From: a virus
Taxonomy: Duplodnaviria > Heunggongvirae > Uroviricota > Caudoviricetes
DNA: 64,000 nucleotides
Strand: one strand, 5' to 3'
Virus record (IMG/VR): IMGVR_UViG_3300042885_000900
How positions within the stretch are numbered: the first letter of the stretch is position 1; every line of letters begins with the position of its first letter. A program made the translations under genes and the position numbers. Of the stretch, positions 2,496 to 58,151 are shown piece after piece. The notes under the pieces were generated by a model that saw only the letters and a program-made list of their open reading frames with translations, had not been told where the DNA came from and did not search any database.

Positions 2496-3341
2496 TTAAT
2501 TTTTATAATTCATAATTAAAATTTCTTCACCCATTGTTTGTACCTTACCCTTCTTAGCCGCAGCCGCTTTTGCAAATAATTTTCTCTCCCATTGATATTG
2601 ATTCTGAGGAAACCATACTTGTAATTGGGGAAAATCATAGTAAGACATCCCAAATTTACCCTTAACCCTTTTTAATGTGTTAGCTAATCTTTCGTGGTCT
2701 TTACTATCAAAGTCATGATTATTGTAATAGTTCTCTGTTTTCCAATATGGCGCATCCACATAATGAAACGTTTTATCAGAATCATATTTTAATATTAAAT
2801 CTTCAAAATCCATATTTTCAATATGAGTAATATTAAGAAAATATTCCACCCAATCAGGTTTAGATAATTTGTCTCGGAATGTTAGATATTTTGATTTATA
2901 CTTTCCTTTAAGGTCAATAAACGAACTTGTTTCAGGTTTAGAACCACTAAAAACTTGAGTAACCACATAAACATATTTCGCGGCGACTTCATAATTATAT
3001 TCACCAACATTAAACCCTTCTTTAAAAATTTCAGACTGAAATTTAATAAATTGTTCTTTACATATTTCTGGTGTAGGAAACACTCCTTTTTCTTGACAAG
3101 GGATTTTATTTATCTCCTCTAATAATCTTGAGGGATTTTTAATACACTGAAATAAATTATAATTTAACGGATTCAAATCATTATATACAATTTTTTTAAG
3201 ATTTGGATATTTACTTAAATCCATATTAAAATAACACCACATCATTCCACCGAAACTCTCGGTATATATTTCCATATCATTTGGATAATATTCTATTAAC
3301 CACTTACCTATTCTACTCTTACCACCAATCCAACTTAACAT
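2496..3341 (-). CDS. Dam-like (D12 class) N6-adenine DNA methyltransferase
   Basis: WIGGKS start, motif I ESFGG, YNDLN, catalytic DAPY; probable start at M24 (3341) rather than 3410. Confidence 0.85.
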   Translation of the reverse strand: MLSWIGGKSRIGKWLIEYYPNDMEIYTESFGGMMWCYFNMDLSKYPNLKKIVYNDLNPLNYNLFQCIKNPSRLLEEINKIPCQEKGVFPTPEICKEQFIKFQSEIFKEGFNVGEYNYEVAAKYVYVVTQVFSGSKPETSSFIDLKGKYKSKYLTFRDKLSKPDWVEYFLNITHIENMDFEDLILKYDSDKTFHYVDAPYWKTENYYNNHDFDSKDHERLANTLKRVKGKFGMSYYDFPQLQVWFPQNQYQWERKLFAKAAAAKKGKVQTMGEEILIMNYKN

Positions 3342-3345
3342 ATTA

Positions 3346-4110
3346 TTAAAATTTAAAATTATATTCTGATTCAGGATTTCTTGGAAATCTTGAAAGTTTA
3401 TTAAACGCAATATAACTCACGTATTTATTAAATGTAATTAAATTATTCTTTTTAATCAAATCACAAAATTCTTCTTTACTAACAAAATTATTTATAACCT
3501 CATTAAATTTATTTTTTTTTCTTTCTAAAAAAACAGTATCATCACTATATATAATATTTTTAAATTTAAAAACATCCGTCAAATTAGTTATTGATAATAT
3601 TTTTATTTTACCGGAAGAGTAAATGTTTAATTTATAAACACCATTGTCCGATAAAAACTTTTTCAATGAAATAATAAACCCCTCATTCCCCGCAATCGAG
3701 ACGTGATGCCATTTATTTTTAATCTTACTAATACACCCATCCCCGTCAAAATAACCCCTAACAAAATGTTTAATTAAATTAGGTTCAATATTGGGGAATA
3801 TTATTTTAAATGTTTTATTATTAACACAACCTAAATCAAATAATCTATTAACCAATAAATTTGAATAAACCGTTACCGAACAAAATTTAGATTTACCATC
3901 TATGCCGCATTTTATTGGCTTGTCACATTCTATATCTGTAAGAAATTTTTCAATATGGGGTTTATCAGTATCTTTTAATTTTAATTTTAACTCTCCACTT
4001 TTACCATCTTTCATTCTGGTATACCCATCCGCATATAAAAACCCTAACCAATATGACGACTTCTCATTTAACTCATCAAAAAAATGTTCATTAAAACTAT
4101 ATTTTCTCAT
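3346..4110 (-). CDS. Free-standing two-motif LAGLIDADG homing endonuclease
   Basis: YWLGFLYADG and FVRGYFDGDG motifs; short C-terminal extension (...FPRNPESEY). Confidence 0.88.
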   Translation of the reverse strand: MRKYSFNEHFFDELNEKSSYWLGFLYADGYTRMKDGKSGELKLKLKDTDKPHIEKFLTDIECDKPIKCGIDGKSKFCSVTVYSNLLVNRLFDLGCVNNKTFKIIFPNIEPNLIKHFVRGYFDGDGCISKIKNKWHHVSIAGNEGFIISLKKFLSDNGVYKLNIYSSGKIKILSITNLTDVFKFKNIIYSDDTVFLERKKNKFNEVINNFVSKEEFCDLIKKNNLITFNKYVSYIAFNKLSRFPRNPESEYNFKF

Positions 4111-4255
4111 AATACTCTTTAACTAATTTTTGGATAAACTTGGAAATACTAACCTCCTCGTTTTTCATTTTATCAAAAAGATATCGGTTAATACTTATTC
4201 CGTATTTAACTTTCTTATCTTCGTCATTTTTATTAGGTCGTCCAATCTTTCCCAT
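4097..4255 (-). CDS. 52-aa ribbon-helix-helix protein (not in ORF track)
   Basis: MGKIGRPNKNDEDKKVKYGISINRYLFDKMKNEEVSISKFIQKLVKEYYEKI; strand-helix-helix pattern; overlaps LAGLIDADG start by 14 nt; TATTTATA at 4260-4267. Confidence 0.72.
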   Translation of the reverse strand: MGKIGRPNKNDEDKKVKYGISINRYLFDKMKNEEVSISKFIQKLVKEYYEKI

Positions 4256-4259
4256 ATAT

Positions 4260-4267
4260 TATAAATA
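4260..4267 (-). promoter_or_regulatory. Putative late-promoter motif TATTTATA
   Basis: 4 nt from ATG 4255. Confidence 0.6.
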
Positions 4268-4346
4268 TCCCAAAGAATAGTAAAAGTGCGTTAAAAAGTG
4301 AAGTTTTTTTGAGAAAAAAATAGTTTTTCTTTTAAAATTTTTCCCC

Positions 4347-20177: not shown

Positions 20178-20525
20178 TTAATTTTTCACTGGTCTGTTCT
20201 CCTCAAACCATTCAACAATAGAATTTATTATCCACACAGCCCCTGATGATAATAGACCATCAAAGAACCAAGACACATTTTCGGAAATACCGAATAATTG
20301 GTGTATTGGAGAGTATAATAAAAAACTCAATAAAAATCCACTCCAGGTGCTAAAACACATTGGACAGGTTAATATACCCGATATAAAACGTCCTAATCCG
20401 TTAAAAGGTGTGTATTGGTTATTTCCCCATTTTTTAAAGAAATCTCTCAATCCCTGAAAGATTGACCCGTATACCATAATGTTCATAAGCCCATAACTTA
20501 AAATGAACCAAACTAATATTTCCAT
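20178..20525 (-). CDS. DUF1360-like membrane protein
   Basis: Three hydrophobic helices and LTCPMCFSTW motif. Confidence 0.65.
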   Translation of the reverse strand: MEILVWFILSYGLMNIMVYGSIFQGLRDFFKKWGNNQYTPFNGLGRFISGILTCPMCFSTWSGFLLSFLLYSPIHQLFGISENVSWFFDGLLSSGAVWIINSIVEWFEENRPVKN

Positions 20526-20526
20526 A

Positions 20527-21240
20527 TTATAAATTTTCTGTTAAGTTAGAACCTTTCATATAAACCGCACCACGCTCTATATTACTTGATTCCAATTGTT
20601 TATTTATTTTTTCAAGCTCTTCTATTCTTGTGTTCTTTAAAGATAGTTCTTTTCTTAATTTCTGTAAAGTTTCTTGGATAAGTTTTAATTTATCATTTCC
20701 GGAATCAACCTCAACTATAACTTCTTTAATAACCTCTACCACCTTCTCCACCTCAATAATTCTATCCACCGGAACTTCCTTAATAACCTCCACTATCTTC
20801 TCAATAATAATTGGTTCAGGTTCGTCCCTTTTTTCCTCTATAATTGGGACGGGATTGTCGTAAATATATACTATTTTTTCGACAGGAACTTCCACTTTTA
20901 TCTCCCTAATGACTTCTCTATCAACATATTTGATAATTTCTATTTCCGTGGGTGGGCTCGGAACTTCTTTAATGATTTCCACTTCCTTAATGACCTCAAC
21001 TTCTTTGATAACTTCAACAGGAACTTCTACCCGTATTTCACGGATTACCTCAATTTCTACCTGTTTTTCCTCAACAATACTCGTTTTTCCCGAATCATCA
21101 CCAAGCAGACCATATTTAGTTGTGTTAAATCCACCAGTAAAACATTTTACGATGAATTTATCAATGTCCTCAATATCGTTTAATTTACAATACTCATTGA
21201 CACTAGTTAATTGACTATTTGTTAACACGATTTGCTTCAC
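20527..21240 (-). CDS. Hypothetical protein with IKEV/VEV low-complexity repeats and C-terminal coiled coil
   Basis: Repeated (V/I)E(V/I)IKEV units. Confidence 0.75.
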   Translation of the reverse strand: MKQIVLTNSQLTSVNEYCKLNDIEDIDKFIVKCFTGGFNTTKYGLLGDDSGKTSIVEEKQVEIEVIREIRVEVPVEVIKEVEVIKEVEIIKEVPSPPTEIEIIKYVDREVIREIKVEVPVEKIVYIYDNPVPIIEEKRDEPEPIIIEKIVEVIKEVPVDRIIEVEKVVEVIKEVIVEVDSGNDKLKLIQETLQKLRKELSLKNTRIEELEKINKQLESSNIERGAVYMKGSNLTENL

Positions 21241-21318
21241 GCTCTTTGTCTTCTTGTTCTATTTTTTTAAGTAATTCTTCCCACTCCTCATCGGAGTATT
21301 TATGTCTAAGATTTCCCA

Positions 21319-21939
21319 TTATATTATTTTATCTCGTTTAATTATATTCTCAATAGCCCATAAAGGTTGTAAATTAGTATAATGACATAATTTTTTTAAT
21401 TCATCATCATTTTTAGCGGATGATAATGGAATAATATGGTCAATATGCCAACCAAATAATCCGTGATTCTCCCAACACATACCATCTTTAAATTGTTTTT
21501 CCAAATAACTTTTTAATTCTGAAGGTGAACAACCAATTAAATCAAAGGTGGATTCTCTATTACTACCCAAAATTTTATTTGTCTTACTTCTATACAACAT
21601 TTTTAATTTTAAGATAGGGTCATCTTTTTTTCGTTGAACCATTTTTGAGTTAATAAAATCTCTATTCCTTTCAACATAATCTTTTTTATATTGTTCAACT
21701 TTATCTTTATTATTATTCCCCCAAATTTTAACTCTATCAATAATTATTTTTTGATTTTCAATGTAATATTCTTTAGATTTTTCTAATATTTTTTCTTTAT
21801 TATCAATATAATATTGTTTTTTATATTCTTTAACACAAACTTTACAATTGTCCTGTAAACCATCCTTAGAACTTTTATTTTTATTAAAATCAAATAATGA
21901 TTTATCTACCGAACATTTTTTACAAATTTTCTTTTTCAA
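21319..21939 (-). CDS. HNH homing endonuclease with N-terminal CxxC...CxxC finger (TTG start)
   Basis: CKKC...NCKVC; WHIDHIIPLS...HYTNLQPLWAIEN. Confidence 0.87.
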   Translation of the reverse strand: MKKKICKKCSVDKSLFDFNKNKSSKDGLQDNCKVCVKEYKKQYYIDNKEKILEKSKEYYIENQKIIIDRVKIWGNNNKDKVEQYKKDYVERNRDFINSKMVQRKKDDPILKLKMLYRSKTNKILGSNRESTFDLIGCSPSELKSYLEKQFKDGMCWENHGLFGWHIDHIIPLSSAKNDDELKKLCHYTNLQPLWAIENIIKRDKII

Positions 21940-22078
21940 ATTTATAATCTTCTAATAATTTATTAACGAGTGACGACAAGTTAATATGAAGACCCCTGTA
22001 ATATTCCAACAATTCAGGTTTAATAGCTATCGATATACTCTGTTTTTTTTCTTCATTATTTTTTTTGTTTCTTCCCAT
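21920..22078 (-). CDS. 52-aa ribbon-helix-helix / CcdA-like protein (not in ORF track)
   Basis: MGRNKKNNEEKKQSISIAIKPELLEYYRGLHINLSSLVNKLLEDYKFEKENL; overlaps HNH start by 20 nt; TATTTATA at 22083-22090. Confidence 0.72.
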   Translation of the reverse strand: MGRNKKNNEEKKQSISIAIKPELLEYYRGLHINLSSLVNKLLEDYKFEKENL

Positions 22079-22082
22079 ATTA

Positions 22083-22090
22083 TATAAATA
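22083..22090 (-). promoter_or_regulatory. Putative late-promoter motif TATTTATA
   Basis: 4 nt from ATG 22078. Confidence 0.6.
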
Positions 22091-22130
22091 TCATAGTTTT
22101 TAGTAAAGTTGTTATTTTTAACAATTTTAT

Positions 22131-22913
22131 TTATAAATTTACCAATTTTTCAGTTCCATTTATTATATCATCAAATGATTTCATTTTAAACGATAAGAAA
22201 GGTTTTGGATTGTGTAAATCAACAAACGAGTATTCATCAGTTTCTAAATTATATATTCCAAATCCGTGTTTAGTAATACTTTCCCCATAGTTCTGAGCAA
22301 TCAAACTCCCTATCATTACACCTCTTTTACCATTTGGGATATTAAAGCTTGCTCTCTTATGAACATCTCCACATAGAACGAGGTCAAGACCGTTAAATTT
22401 TTCAACATCATAAGCGTGTGAACCAAAGTCAAACCCTAAATCTGTAGTTAATCCGGCAACAGGGTCGTGAAATAACCCAATCTTAAATCCAACCGCAGTA
22501 TCAACTTCCGGTGGAATATTACCTTGAAATTGTGAATATACGCACCAAGACACATTCTCATCCTCATAAATCCCTCTATTCTTGTAATAAACAATATTTG
22601 GATTATTTAAATTATCAACAATAGGTGTTATACTATCCAACCTTTCATCATTCTTTAAATTTGCGTCGTGATTACCAGGAATTAAAACTATTTTAGCGAT
22701 TTTAGAACATTCTGTTAATACCCAAGAAGACATTTCTATCGCCTCAGGGGTTAATTGATTTTTTGAATGTAATAAATCCCCCGTAAAGACAATTCTATCC
22801 GGAGCAATCTCTCTGAATTGTTCCAACATATTATTTAAGATACCACGATATAAATCGTGGTCTTTAAATAATCGTATATGTAAGTCACTAAAGTGAACTA
22901 ATTTTTTTATCAT
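22131..22913 (-). CDS. SbcD/Mre11/gp47-like metallophosphoesterase nuclease (short, ~260 aa)
   Basis: SDLH, GDLLH, GNHD, H and GDVH motifs; probable start MIKK at 22913. Confidence 0.88.
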   Translation of the reverse strand: MIKKLVHFSDLHIRLFKDHDLYRGILNNMLEQFREIAPDRIVFTGDLLHSKNQLTPEAIEMSSWVLTECSKIAKIVLIPGNHDANLKNDERLDSITPIVDNLNNPNIVYYKNRGIYEDENVSWCVYSQFQGNIPPEVDTAVGFKIGLFHDPVAGLTTDLGFDFGSHAYDVEKFNGLDLVLCGDVHKRASFNIPNGKRGVMIGSLIAQNYGESITKHGFGIYNLETDEYSFVDLHNPKPFLSFKMKSFDDIINGTEKLVNL

Positions 22914-22914
22914 A

Positions 22915-23100
22915 TTATTTTTCAATTTTCCAATTTAATAATCCCCATACTAAAATTAAAGCAGGTATTCCTACCCACCATAACCATTCATCATGACATT
23001 TAACACCATTAATTGACATAATGATATATGTTATTGTTGGTATCCACCACAATGACGCAGTGCAAGGAGCACAAACACCTTCTTTTTTAATTAATTTCAT
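22915..23100 (-). CDS. Small two-TM membrane protein
   Basis: Trp-rich hydrophobic helices. Confidence 0.6.
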   Translation of the reverse strand: MKLIKKEGVCAPCTASLWWIPTITYIIMSINGVKCHDEWLWWVGIPALILVWGLLNWKIEK

Positions 23101-55591: not shown

Positions 55592-56596
55592 TTAATTGTT
55601 TTTATAATTTCGTTTTTCTTTTCTTGTTAATTTCATAAAGGGTTTAACAAAATTCACCCACGCATCATCACCTTTTGGTAGATACTTAAAAAACCCGTCT
55701 TCCATCATCATTTTAATTAATCCCTTATAACCCCTACCATCAGGGTCTAAAGTTTCTTTATAATATAACTCAACAAGCTCTTTAGCATCATCAGTTATCA
55801 ATGGAGAAGATAAATTTATGATTTTTTCGTTAATAACAAAAAATTCATCACCATAAATTCCACTCTTTGTTTTACCGGACAAAAGATTTTGTAATGTCTT
55901 ATTTCCTTTGTTCTCCTTTAATAGGTTATCAGCCCTTTCTAAAATATCGGTAACTGAAACCGGTTTTTCAAGTAGCTCGGGAAAAAACTTTATAAGTGTT
56001 TTTTCTCCCAACCCTGAAATACCATCAATGTTGTCCGATTTATCCCCCGACAATATTTTATAAGTTTTAATGTTTTCATGGGGAAATTCGTAAAAATCAC
56101 ATTTGATTTTACTTCCTAAATGATAAGTTTGTTTGGTTCTCGGATAAAACACCGATACCTTATCCGAAATAAGTTGGGTAAGGTCTTTATCCCCCGAATA
56201 GATGGTCTTTTGTTCGTTTTCCGAGATTTGGCAGTAATAAGCAATCAAATCATCGGCTTCGTTATTATCGATGTTGATTTGTCTTATATAACAGTCCTCC
56301 AAGTATTGTTTGATTCTTTCTTTCTGCTCAGTGAAAGAATCTAACTTATACTCGTTTTCTCTGTCTCTACGATTTTCTTTATATTGGGGATAAATAAGTT
56401 TGCGAGCAGATGAATTATCATCACCATCCCACATCACAACAACCTTATCAAAGTTTTGTTCGTCTATGAAACGCCTAACGGTATTAATGAAGTGCCATAG
56501 GGCACCTATATGTTTTCCGTTATGATAATAATCTTTTACTCCGTGGAATCCAATTTTTGTTAAATTGTTACCATCCACTAATAGGGTTTTAACCAC
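55592..56596 (-). CDS. 5'-3' exonuclease / flap endonuclease (T4 RNase H, PolI N-terminal family)
   Basis: LVDGNN, WDG, YK.NR, EADD, SGDKDL.QL, GDKSDNIDGI.G.GEKT. Confidence 0.92.
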   Translation of the reverse strand: MVKTLLVDGNNLTKIGFHGVKDYYHNGKHIGALWHFINTVRRFIDEQNFDKVVVMWDGDDNSSARKLIYPQYKENRRDRENEYKLDSFTEQKERIKQYLEDCYIRQINIDNNEADDLIAYYCQISENEQKTIYSGDKDLTQLISDKVSVFYPRTKQTYHLGSKIKCDFYEFPHENIKTYKILSGDKSDNIDGISGLGEKTLIKFFPELLEKPVSVTDILERADNLLKENKGNKTLQNLLSGKTKSGIYGDEFFVINEKIINLSSPLITDDAKELVELYYKETLDPDGRGYKGLIKMMMEDGFFKYLPKGDDAWVNFVKPFMKLTRKEKRNYKNN

Positions 56597-56617: not shown

Positions 56618-57622
56618 CTACTCTTTTTCTTCTACCTCTTTCAAATCGTAATCACCATCTGTTCCGATAATGTTTTTCCAATATTCAGAGTATTCTTTTT
56701 TGTACTTCTCAATTGAAGCCTTTTCTTCTACTGTCTCTTTACCCGCTAAAAATCCGTGAGGTGTTACAATAATTTTACCATCCTCATAACCTAATCCATT
56801 GATGTGGTTTTTCATAACGGACACTTTAGTTCTTACAGCAAATTTGATAGTTCTTTTATCTTTAGTAGCTGTAATCTTTGTTGTTCCCGCTCCTTTTTCA
56901 TTTCCAAATCTAAATACTAATGAAGAGTTCAACCAAATCGCTTCACCACCCTTAGCTTTAATTTTTGGTTGTCCGAATGGATTATCCGGAAGTTCAACCC
57001 ATGGTTGGTTAACAATCACCAAAGTATTCTCGTATTTAGAATCAGATTTACGACTTCCCGAGATTCTTTGATTGATACCCATACCAATTTTATCAGCTAA
57101 TGCCGCCGCGTTATGTTGTTTACCACCCTTACCCTCAAAAGTCATTTTACAAGGAACTGAACCAACAGAATCCCATAAAAATAATAAACTATAATCTAAT
57201 TCACCCTTTTCTTGAGCATCAAGTAAACTGTTAATGTAATCTGTTATTTGTTCAATATAACTGAAGTTATTATTAAAGATGTAGAACCCATCCCATTCTA
57301 ATTCACCTGTTTCTTCATCAACTAATTCTTCACAATCAAAACCCATAAGTTTTGCGTGTTCAAACGACCACTTCTGTTCGGTAATGATGAATACAGGTAA
57401 TATTTGTTTTTTCTGAGCATCAACCGCACATTTAACTAAAGCTGTGGTTTTACCTGTATCGGAATGACCCAAGAACATATTTAAATGTCCTATCGCTGGT
57501 CCCGGAATACCAACAGCATCTAAAAAGTCAGGACCTAAGTCAAAAAACCTTTGTGGTTTGTATTTTGCCGATGTTGAGAATTTGTCCTTAATAGACTTAA
57601 AATCGTGTTTTTTAATTGCCAT
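56618..57622 (-). CDS. RecA/UvsX-like recombinase
   Basis: Walker A GHSDTGKT, WDSVG, IVNQ, GG.A. Confidence 0.88.
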   Translation of the reverse strand: MAIKKHDFKSIKDKFSTSAKYKPQRFFDLGPDFLDAVGIPGPAIGHLNMFLGHSDTGKTTALVKCAVDAQKKQILPVFIITEQKWSFEHAKLMGFDCEELVDEETGELEWDGFYIFNNNFSYIEQITDYINSLLDAQEKGELDYSLLFLWDSVGSVPCKMTFEGKGGKQHNAAALADKIGMGINQRISGSRKSDSKYENTLVIVNQPWVELPDNPFGQPKIKAKGGEAIWLNSSLVFRFGNEKGAGTTKITATKDKRTIKFAVRTKVSVMKNHINGLGYEDGKIIVTPHGFLAGKETVEEKASIEKYKKEYSEYWKNIIGTDGDYDLKEVEEKE

Positions 57623-58151
57623 TTTTAATTATTTTATTTAAGTAACTGATATGTTTTTCTTTTGTATCCAATAGTTCACCATCAATTGTGTTATATTTCA
57701 TAAGTTCAGGATTATAAATCATTAATCTATGTAATAAATTATGGTCTTTAATATTTAACTCTATTATATCTAACCAATCTTCTCGATTATAAGACCAATG
57801 ATGTAAATGAATACCTTTTATTTTAGTTAAGAAAATTTCAGTATATTTAGCCGCTAAATATTTTTCAGGATATTTTTGTCTATAGTTTTTTATATATTCT
57901 CTTTTTTTCTCTGTCGTGGGACGCTTTTCCTTATAATTTAACCTATGATATTTTTCTCTATGTCGTTCTTTTTCTTTTTTAACCCATTCGGAGTCGTTTA
58001 TTAATTCGGACTCTCTTTTCCTGACATCAATCTTAGTACATTTTTTACATTTATTCAAATGTCCGTCAGTCATTTGGTTATGTTTATAAAACTCACATAA
58101 GGGTAGGTTTTGATTACATTTAAAACATTTTTTAATAACATTTTCCTCCAT
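57612..58151 (-). CDS. HNH homing endonuclease with N-terminal CxxC...CxxC finger
   Basis: CFKC...NKCKKC; HLHHWSY...L...DH.LLH; probable start MEENV at 58151. Confidence 0.8.
   Translation of the reverse strand: MEENVIKKCFKCNQNLPLCEFYKHNQMTDGHLNKCKKCTKIDVRKRESELINDSEWVKKEKERHREKYHRLNYKEKRPTTEKKREYIKNYRQKYPEKYLAAKYTEIFLTKIKGIHLHHWSYNREDWLDIIELNIKDHNLLHRLMIYNPELMKYNTIDGELLDTKEKHISYLNKIIKNGN

Follow-up and report, generated by a model that had tools for sequence, protein, structure and literature searches.

What does a ribbon-helix-helix (RHH) protein of 52 amino acids do in front of a phage homing endonuclease gene? The question is raised by a virus record of the Caudoviricetes, IMGVR_UViG_3300042885_000900, of which a stretch of 64,000 nucleotides (nt), here called the window, was analysed; its source is an uncultured freshwater giant phage. 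At one locus of the window a small RHH gene overlaps the start of an HNH endonuclease gene (cassette 2), and at a second locus a similar small gene stands in front of a LAGLIDADG endonuclease gene (cassette 1). The original prediction, made from the letters alone, was that a promoter and an RHH gene form a portable module for mobile nucleases, possibly a toxin-antitoxin-like unit. The results described below bear out the module and argue against the toxin-antitoxin reading. On balance we consider it likely that the RHH protein controls the promoter of its own cassette.

Cassette 2 contains overlapping RHH and HNH genes

In this part of the window every gene is on the minus strand. The RHH gene (21920–22078) encodes a 52-amino-acid protein which starts MGRNKK and has the alternating strand QSISIAI, the helix INLSSLVNKLL and two predicted helices. 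It matches the Pfam family CcdA with 26.1 bits (cut-off 22.4), over profile positions 1–34 of 71 only, corresponding to the RHH DNA-binding half. The second gene (21319–21939, 206 amino acids) encodes a CxxC zinc-finger HNH (His-Me) homing endonuclease, with an N-terminal CxxC...CxxC finger, a lysine-rich repeat linker and an intact C-terminal HIDHIIP...N...N motif. It matches PHROG 1035 ('endonuclease VII') at 1.3e-20, the match to Pfam HNH being weak (0.13) and below the cut-off, and it is 44–49% identical to cargos of other cassettes. Its stop codon overlaps the ATG of the next open reading frame (ORF).

The end of the RHH gene and the start of the HNH gene overlap by 20 nt (21920–21939), the nuclease being read in the +1 frame with respect to the RHH gene. 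Relatives carry an ATG exactly at the position of the TTG start codon, giving METK/MEKK-x-C-x-x-C, and the TTG start is therefore real. Nearly all relatives have ATG where cassette 2 has TTG (21937–21939), a difference that may weaken expression or mark an early step of decay. The original description of a 52-residue ORF starting MGR, with an SISIAI strand and an INLSSLVNKLL helix and overlapping a TTG-initiated HNH gene, was thus accurate throughout.

The cassettes are present or absent as units

The window was compared with its nearest relative (G001), a 322-kb record rated complete, with which it has 29% of its words in common. At the site of cassette 2 (site 1), an sbcD-like gene and a 34-amino-acid ORF of this relative enclose a 68-amino-acid DUF2061 ORF instead of the RHH and HNH genes. 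At the dam site, where cassette 1 is located, it has neither the RHH gene nor the LAGLIDADG gene, and the RHH peptide had no match in this genome. Contigs from other lake samples show two further states of site 1. In one, position 21320 is joined directly to 22137, skipping 816 bp; in the other, 212 other letters between 21319 and 22136 replace the same 816 bp. The borders of the unit lie at about 21320/21321 and 22135/22136, slightly beyond the range first proposed. These joints, together with the comparison with the nearest relative, therefore indicate that the promoter region and the RHH and nuclease genes are present or absent together, as a single block (816 bp, 21320–22136, minus strand). 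The comparison of empty and occupied loci suggested with the original prediction thus showed both cassettes to be missing as whole units from the nearest relative.

The nucleases belong to recognised homing families. Close relatives either have or lack them at a given intergenic site, and the borders are sharp, as is characteristic of homing genes. Judged by its sequence, the segment 21320–22136 is a free-standing homing-endonuclease cassette with three co-moving parts; that it homes, we infer.

A related leader precedes an unrelated nuclease in cassette 1

Cassette 1, on the minus strand, consists of a 52-amino-acid RHH gene (4097–4255) and a LAGLIDADG homing endonuclease gene of 254 amino acids (3346–4110), which overlap by 14 nt. 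The nuclease is recognised by Pfam LAGLIDADG_3 (30.3 bits, cut-off 22.5) and by PHROG 4645 (1.4e-42). A promoter-like region (4260–4297) is made up of TTTTTAACGCACTTTT, 14 nt (ACTATTCTTTGGGA) and TATTTATA. The stretch absent from the nearest relative extends over 3346–4321, with borders that are approximate because the adjoining 5′ part of dam has diverged.

The two 52-residue peptides are related (31% identity over 45 amino acids, E 1e-7), which disposes of the possibility, named beforehand as damaging to the module, that they have nothing to do with each other; no CcdA match was obtained with the cassette-1 peptide. The two nucleases do come from different superfamilies, as had been claimed, one being of the His-Me/HNH type (PHROG 1035) and the other a LAGLIDADG enzyme (Pfam match above cut-off). 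By this sequence relationship, cassette 1 is a sister module of cassette 2 with a LAGLIDADG cargo.

The dam gene next to cassette 1 is 92–100% identical to that of the nearest relative at its 3′ end and about 50–60% identical over its 5′ 600 nt (2700–3345, the 5′ two thirds), and the other flank of the cassette is 90–98% identical up to the border. The diverged 5′ part of dam fits a co-converted, cleavage-resistant target allele, to which the LAGLIDADG cassette may be linked.

The same front end is found with several nucleases and at several sites

Word-indexed searches found more than 149 clusters of close homologues for the cassette-2 peptide and more than 375 for the cassette-1 peptide; these are 49–55 amino acids long and 70–100% identical, on contigs of up to 316 kb. 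An exhaustive profile search with no length limit gave 258 clusters at 50% identity, nearly all of them stand-alone proteins of 45–75 amino acids. The 186 loci fetched by RHH similarity hold 122 distinct cassettes, which fall into two main families. Family A (HINLSSLVNKLL type), to which cassette 2 belongs, precedes 56 CxxC-HNH genes, five NUMOD3/TnsA-like genes and a few truncated genes. The NUMOD3/TnsA-like cargos combine a CxxC finger, NUMOD3 motifs and a TnsA-like PD-(D/E)XK domain, both Pfam matches being above their cut-offs for one of them (L104). Family B (KYGISI...SKFIQ type), that of cassette 1, precedes 41 LAGLIDADG genes of several lengths, four CxxC-HNH genes and three chimeras of a zinc finger and LAGLIDADG. 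The chimeras, 281 amino acids long (L188:2646–3491, L139 and L141), have the CxxC zinc-finger N-terminus of the HNH cargos and a LAGLIDADG core, and lie at the dam site behind a family-B RHH gene.

Almost everywhere the RHH and nuclease genes overlap by 14, 17, 20 or 23 nt, and the nuclease is always in the +1 frame. In a more distant RHH subfamily METKTCGRC... also follows, with a 23-nt overlap. A fusion of RHH and nuclease by frameshifting was considered and rejected: the nuclease, always in the +1 frame, has a conserved ATG of its own, no slippery site is present, and no fusions were found among the best 150 of the 258 clusters, where the few long matches were gene-call extensions or decayed fragments.

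Family B is always located between dnaJ and dam. Family A was found at a minimum of four sites: after sbcD, between homologues of the ORFs at 56618–57622 and 55592–56596, in the gap between primase and exonuclease, and upstream of primase, as well as in unrelated contexts. Overall the cassettes occupy at least five genomic sites, and the same classes of RHH strand and operator recur at several of them.

When cassettes were compared in pairs, the RHH proteins had diverged less than the nucleases in 93% of the pairs with HNH cargos and in 88% of those with LAGLIDADG cargos. Where the RHH proteins were at least 90% identical, the median identity of the cargos was 53% (HNH) and 38% (LAGLIDADG), falling as low as 30%. 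A leader that is conserved in this way, and that stands in front of different nuclease folds, therefore shows exchange of cargo and not simple co-divergence. The portable promoter-plus-RHH module that swaps its nuclease cargo is well supported, the same RHH classes being found at several sites with HNH, LAGLIDADG, TnsA-like-NUMOD3 and chimeric cargos.

Few loci have an RHH gene and no intact nuclease gene, and all but one of these (L088) retain a nuclease remnant. In L138 the remnant is an 18-codon zinc-finger stub with a C-terminal piece; elsewhere internal deletions, frameshifts and truncations were seen. Such loci are cassettes in decay, which is what one would expect of homing elements. 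The case that would have counted most against the module, an RHH gene kept without its nuclease, is therefore rare. The intact RHH genes in decayed cassettes should not be over-read, because those loci were themselves fetched by RHH similarity.

Some more unusual relatives were also seen. In L100 (322–2460) and L102, a 712-amino-acid C5 DNA methylase is fused to the RHH leader plus the opening codons of the usual METK nuclease start. This methylase is split by an intein with a LAGLIDADG domain. In L190 (374–1647), a distant 48-amino-acid member of the RHH superfamily directly follows a Rep_1 replication gene on a 6.3-kb replicon, as plasmid copy-control RHH genes do. Distant members of the superfamily are ordinary regulators, and the link with nucleases is therefore limited to particular subfamilies.

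When 50,697 deposited phage genomes were searched with the RHH peptide by tblastn, only chance-level matches were obtained. Among family libraries, PHROGs gave one weak match, to a family of unknown function, for the cassette-2 peptide and none for the cassette-1 peptide, and NCBIfam and PADLOC gave none.

The leader encodes a conserved RHH protein

The ratio of non-synonymous to synonymous polymorphism (pN/pS) was calculated for the first 44 codons, outside the overlap. Its mean was 0.32 in family A (55 sequences) and 0.16 in family B (21 sequences), and third codon positions vary 3–7 times more than second positions. The RHH gene thus encodes a real protein under purifying selection.

An AlphaFold2 monomer model (predicted local distance difference test score 76) has an extended N-terminus and helices at residues 21–29 and 34–51. 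The strand-helix-helix topology and the length of about 45 residues are those of the RHH (Arc/MetJ/CopG) superfamily. Foldseek found no match to the 52-residue model in the PDB, and a profile search of PDB sequences gave nothing below E 0.29. With a structure aligner independent of Foldseek, the top matches were mostly RHH proteins: the omega repressor (1irq, Z 4.0), CopA_SO, ORF56, PutA-RHH, NikR, ParD2 and ParG. The Z values are low (at most 4.0) because the protein has only 52 residues. The protein is predicted to form a homodimer whose paired strands read palindromic or repeated DNA sites, a prediction to which the match between RHH class and upstream element described next, with its three symmetrical palindromes, lends indirect support.

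The upstream element changes with the RHH class

Four nucleotides before the ATG of the cassette-2 RHH gene is the box TATTTATA (22083–22090, minus strand), a promoter-like sequence general to the phage. Further upstream, a perfect palindrome, TTGTTAAAAATAACAA (22109–22124, minus strand), abuts CTTTAC; it is the sole exact copy in the window and is our candidate for the RHH operator. Half of the copies of TATTTATA in the window (11/22) lie within 25 nt upstream of an ATG-initiated ORF; for its reverse complement the count is 1/22, and for four other AT-rich octamers it is 1–3 of 10–24. The box is the reverse complement of the T4 late box and occurs on the coding strand between 2406 and 60099, for example at 2406, 4260, 4369, 9209, 22083, 27249, 49469, 53671, 58168 and 60092. 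From its placement it is likely to represent a promoter class of this phage, with several nearly leaderless mRNAs.

The remainder of the upstream region behaves differently from this box. The composite TTTACTA-N8-12-TATTTATA occurs only at the two cassettes in 64 kb, where none would be expected, and ACTTT-N10-17-TATTTAT, the palindrome TTGTTAAAAATAACAA and TTTTTAACGCACTTTT are each restricted to cassettes within the window. The claim that both cassettes have an upstream context in common therefore stands for the bipartite motif and its cassette-specific upstream element, and falls for the GATATTTATA box, which is a general start-proximal motif. In the same way, a general phage promoter can be ruled out as the explanation of the upstream half, which has two sites only, and is accepted for TATTTATA.

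Across cassettes the upstream region has a fixed architecture: a class element, CTTT(T), about 12–14 variable nucleotides, (GA)TATTTAT, 4–6 nt and the ATG. The class element goes with the predicted DNA-reading strand of the RHH protein that follows. Proteins with QS[IV]SIA (KSISVA in further loci) are preceded by TGTT(A/T)-N4-(A/T)AACA, and all nine distinct QS[IV]SIA upstream regions contain TGTTA-N4-TAACA. With TKVSVA the element is TCACAC (37/40), and 15 of those 37 have the full TGTGA-N4-TCACA; VKLAVS goes with TATAA-N4-TTATA, seen in further loci, and VKIGVSI with TTACA or TTATA (7/8). Family B has ACGCAC (31/42), with ACGCACTTT in 31 of the 42 upstream regions. For three classes the two half-sites change symmetrically (TGTGA-N4-TCACA, TGTTA-N4-TAACA and TATAA-N4-TTATA), as expected of a dimer on a symmetric site. 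The ATCACA/TTCACA half-site of the cassettes resembles the heptad of the omega repressor, WATCACW. The class element is at least 90% conserved and the adjacent spacer about 50%.

A scan seeded with the HNH protein gave a TATTTAT box in all 48 distinct RHH-led loci and a match to the strict list of class elements in 21 of the 48; none of 19 RHH-less HNH loci contained a strict class element. The palindrome was also considered as a terminator of the upstream gene. This is unlikely, as the stem is only 5–6 bp and AT-rich, family B has no palindrome, and the element varies from one RHH strand class to another.

Possible roles of the RHH protein

The class-specific element at a promoter position, and the gene overlap behind it, lead us to favour, with reasonable though incomplete confidence, a reading in which the RHH protein is an autoregulator of the cassette promoter, probably a repressor, and the nuclease is made by translational coupling. 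The shared front end is then probably a portable, on-board control switch. Under such a scheme a bicistronic, near-leaderless mRNA would be made from the cassette's own promoter. The RHH protein would dimerise and bind the element at the would-be −35 position, and binding would feed back on transcription, most likely as repression, so that the nuclease would be produced only in a small pulse. Coupling of nuclease translation to RHH translation through the 14–23-nt overlap would limit the amount further. The nuclease would then cut cassette-free genomes of co-infecting relatives, and repair would copy the whole unit. The front end of promoter, proposed operator and RHH gene is modular, recombination joining it to other nuclease genes (HNH, LAGLIDADG or TnsA-like).

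Several points weigh against autorepression. Part of the match between class and element could be due to co-inheritance, because the RHH gene and the element are only about 50 nt apart. A clear palindrome is found in some classes only, family B and VKIGVSI showing one half-site or direct repeats. A transcript starting 6–7 nt after TATTTATA would begin inside the first codon. By analogy with the controller proteins of restriction-modification systems, which activate at low dose, the RHH protein may be an activator, and its intactness in decayed cassettes could mean a role beyond its own nuclease. Contigs from four RNA libraries, libraries which may also contain DNA, were compared with 20500–23000; they matched the flanking regions and, within the HNH gene, two short conserved pieces, and did not cover the RHH gene.

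Autoregulation might be extended to immunity of the repressor type. The RHH front ends would then be diversifying repressor/operator classes (five or more) through which, in a mixed infection, a resident cassette silences same-class newcomers in trans, and the leader would double as a recombination arm for cargo exchange. We regard this extension, built on the sequence classes, as unlikely but worth stating. It is distinctly unlikely that the RHH protein mainly controls other cassettes or phage genes, such as rival cassettes of its class or the downstream dam gene. Such a trans-acting regulator would suit genomes with several same-class cassettes (for example two copies on single contigs), the loci with an intact RHH gene and a decayed nuclease, and the invariable position of family B directly before dam. 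The class element, however, was found upstream of RHH genes only, and the apparent survival of RHH genes is biased by the fetching of loci through RHH similarity; moreover, the target that the RHH gene offers to mutation is four to five times smaller.

An RHH protein that binds at or near the nuclease target or the donor copy, and so protects the cassette-bearing genome or aids repair and recombination, is an improbable alternative. Such a homing helper or immunity factor would be a DNA binder that always accompanies the nuclease, as the RHH protein is predicted to be, and the 5′ part of dam (about 50–60% identical to the cassette-free relative, against 90–100% for the outer flanks) suggests a protected or co-converted target allele. 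But the sole conserved class-specific DNA element is inside the cassette, at the promoter position, one RHH class serves different sites with different flanks, and the 64-kb window contains no further good copy of the palindrome.

The toxin-antitoxin-like pair of the original prediction, in which the RHH protein would bind and neutralise the nuclease as CcdA does CcdB, with control of transcription secondary, now appears very doubtful. The Pfam CcdA match is above its cut-off, and the gene order is as in type II systems, with a small RHH gene first that overlaps the gene of a toxic enzyme. However, nothing beyond profile position 34 of 71 is matched, and there is no toxin-binding tail because the protein ends after its second helix. 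CcdA (PF07362) thus has the N-terminal RHH DNA-binding domain in common with the cassette-2 protein; the C-terminal CcdB-binding segment and a CcdB-like partner are absent, the downstream gene encoding an HNH nuclease, and the family-B peptide of cassette 1 is unmatched. The same RHH classes stand ahead of three unrelated nuclease folds. In type II systems the toxin gene is not maintained without the antitoxin gene, whereas 23 of 77 related HNH genes (30%) have no RHH gene, one locus combines a broken RHH gene with an intact HNH gene, and the related HNH gene of a cultured Flavobacterium phage also lacks the leader. Several of the RHH-less HNH genes start directly at the stop codon of the upstream gene, like promoter-less T4 cassettes. 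No PADLOC or NCBIfam family was matched. A predicted complex of two RHH copies and the HNH protein scored 0.00, which speaks neither for nor against binding.

Finally, that the RHH gene is a resident landing site beside which nucleases insert is most improbable: family B, for all its many different cargos, is indeed confined to a single locus before dam, but RHH and HNH genes are missing together with exact borders at site 1, the nearest relative lacks the family-B gene too, family A classes occupy no fewer than four sites and always with a nuclease or its remnant, and RHH-only loci, the expected uninvaded state, are nearly absent.

Neighbouring genes and a third nuclease-like gene

Cassette 2 is flanked upstream by an SbcD/Mre11-like phosphoesterase gene (22131–22925, minus strand; Pfam Metallophos 3.9e-13), conserved in the nearest relative, and downstream by a conserved 34-amino-acid ORF (21215–21319, minus strand), nearly identical there; both are outside the cassette. 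Beyond this ORF, 20527–21240 (minus strand) encodes a 237-amino-acid protein of EVIKEV/VEVIKEV-type repeats, whose length differs from that in the nearest relative; contigs from other samples skip repeat units. Between sbcD and a 61-amino-acid membrane ORF, the nearest relative has an extra gene for a 215-amino-acid FkbM-type methyltransferase (L003:2285–2932; Pfam Methyltransf_21), which the window lacks at 22925/22915. A third nuclease-like gene (57612–58151, minus strand; CxxC...CxxC and HLHH motif) follows a gp32-like gene and has a TATTTATA box and no RHH leader; it showed no BLAST similarity to the HNH gene of cassette 2.

Comparison with known systems

The best structural matches are omega of pSM19035 and CopG of pMV158 (PDB 1irq and 2bnw), with Z 4.0 and 3.4 over 43 residues. 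Both are dimeric RHH repressors of about 45–70 amino acids whose binding sites, short repeats or a pseudo-palindrome, lie over the −35 region of their own operon, CopG binding over the −35 of its own promoter (PMC2724298). They differ from the cassette protein in serving plasmid copy-number and partition circuits, and sequence identity is about 12%.

Controller proteins of restriction-modification systems are also comparable: the gene of a small regulator is placed directly in front of the endonuclease gene, often with an overlap, and autoregulation through a palindromic operator sets nuclease dose and timing (PMC3874152). These are helix-turn-helix proteins, whereas the cassette protein is of the RHH type, and they serve a system protected by a methylase, for which the cassettes have no cognate counterpart. 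The likeness is thus one of gene layout alone.

Among mobile elements, a parallel is Arc, an RHH protein that represses IS605 promoters; the same work mentions in passing Arc homologues beside homing endonuclease genes (Moon et al., 2026 preprint, bioRxiv 10.64898/2026.09.24.754181). There too a tiny RHH protein of a mobile element binds its own element's promoter, and it represses nuclease and transposase genes. IS605 elements are bacterial insertion sequences and not phage homing cassettes, and neither cargo exchange nor matched classes of strand and operator were described.

T4 homing genes are controlled by autorepression by the nuclease at a late-promoter operator, by hairpins that sequester the ribosome-binding site and by overlaps with upstream ORFs; I-TevI, for example, represses its own late promoter (PMC2988022). 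Full-text literature searches turned up no description of a phage homing cassette led by an RHH gene. Given these modes of control and the passing mention of Arc homologues, the arrangement is therefore a novel combination of known parts. It is poorly understood how a phage is spared harm from its own free-standing homing genes, and their transcriptional and translational control has been named as an open, poorly explored area (PMC2988022). If autoregulation is correct, the cassettes would offer a new answer: a portable gene dedicated to regulation, with operator classes to match, present in hundreds of cassettes and serving three or more nuclease folds. They would also hold a natural set of small orthogonal repressor/operator pairs. 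Reading these loci as RHH cassettes would further account for a large set of microproteins that are unannotated in environmental phage genomes. The system is small: a 52-amino-acid protein and a 60-bp DNA fragment suffice for testing.

Phage counterparts are the free-standing homing genes of T4-like phages, such as seg and mob. Like the cassettes, they are wedged between conserved phage genes and variably present. They are expressed from late-type promoters, and their expression is limited by a promoter operator and by overlap with an upstream ORF (PMC2988022), much as is proposed for the cassettes. In T4, however, the nuclease is its own repressor or is restrained by RNA hairpins, whereas here there is a separate 52-amino-acid RHH gene, in a front end common to unrelated nuclease families.

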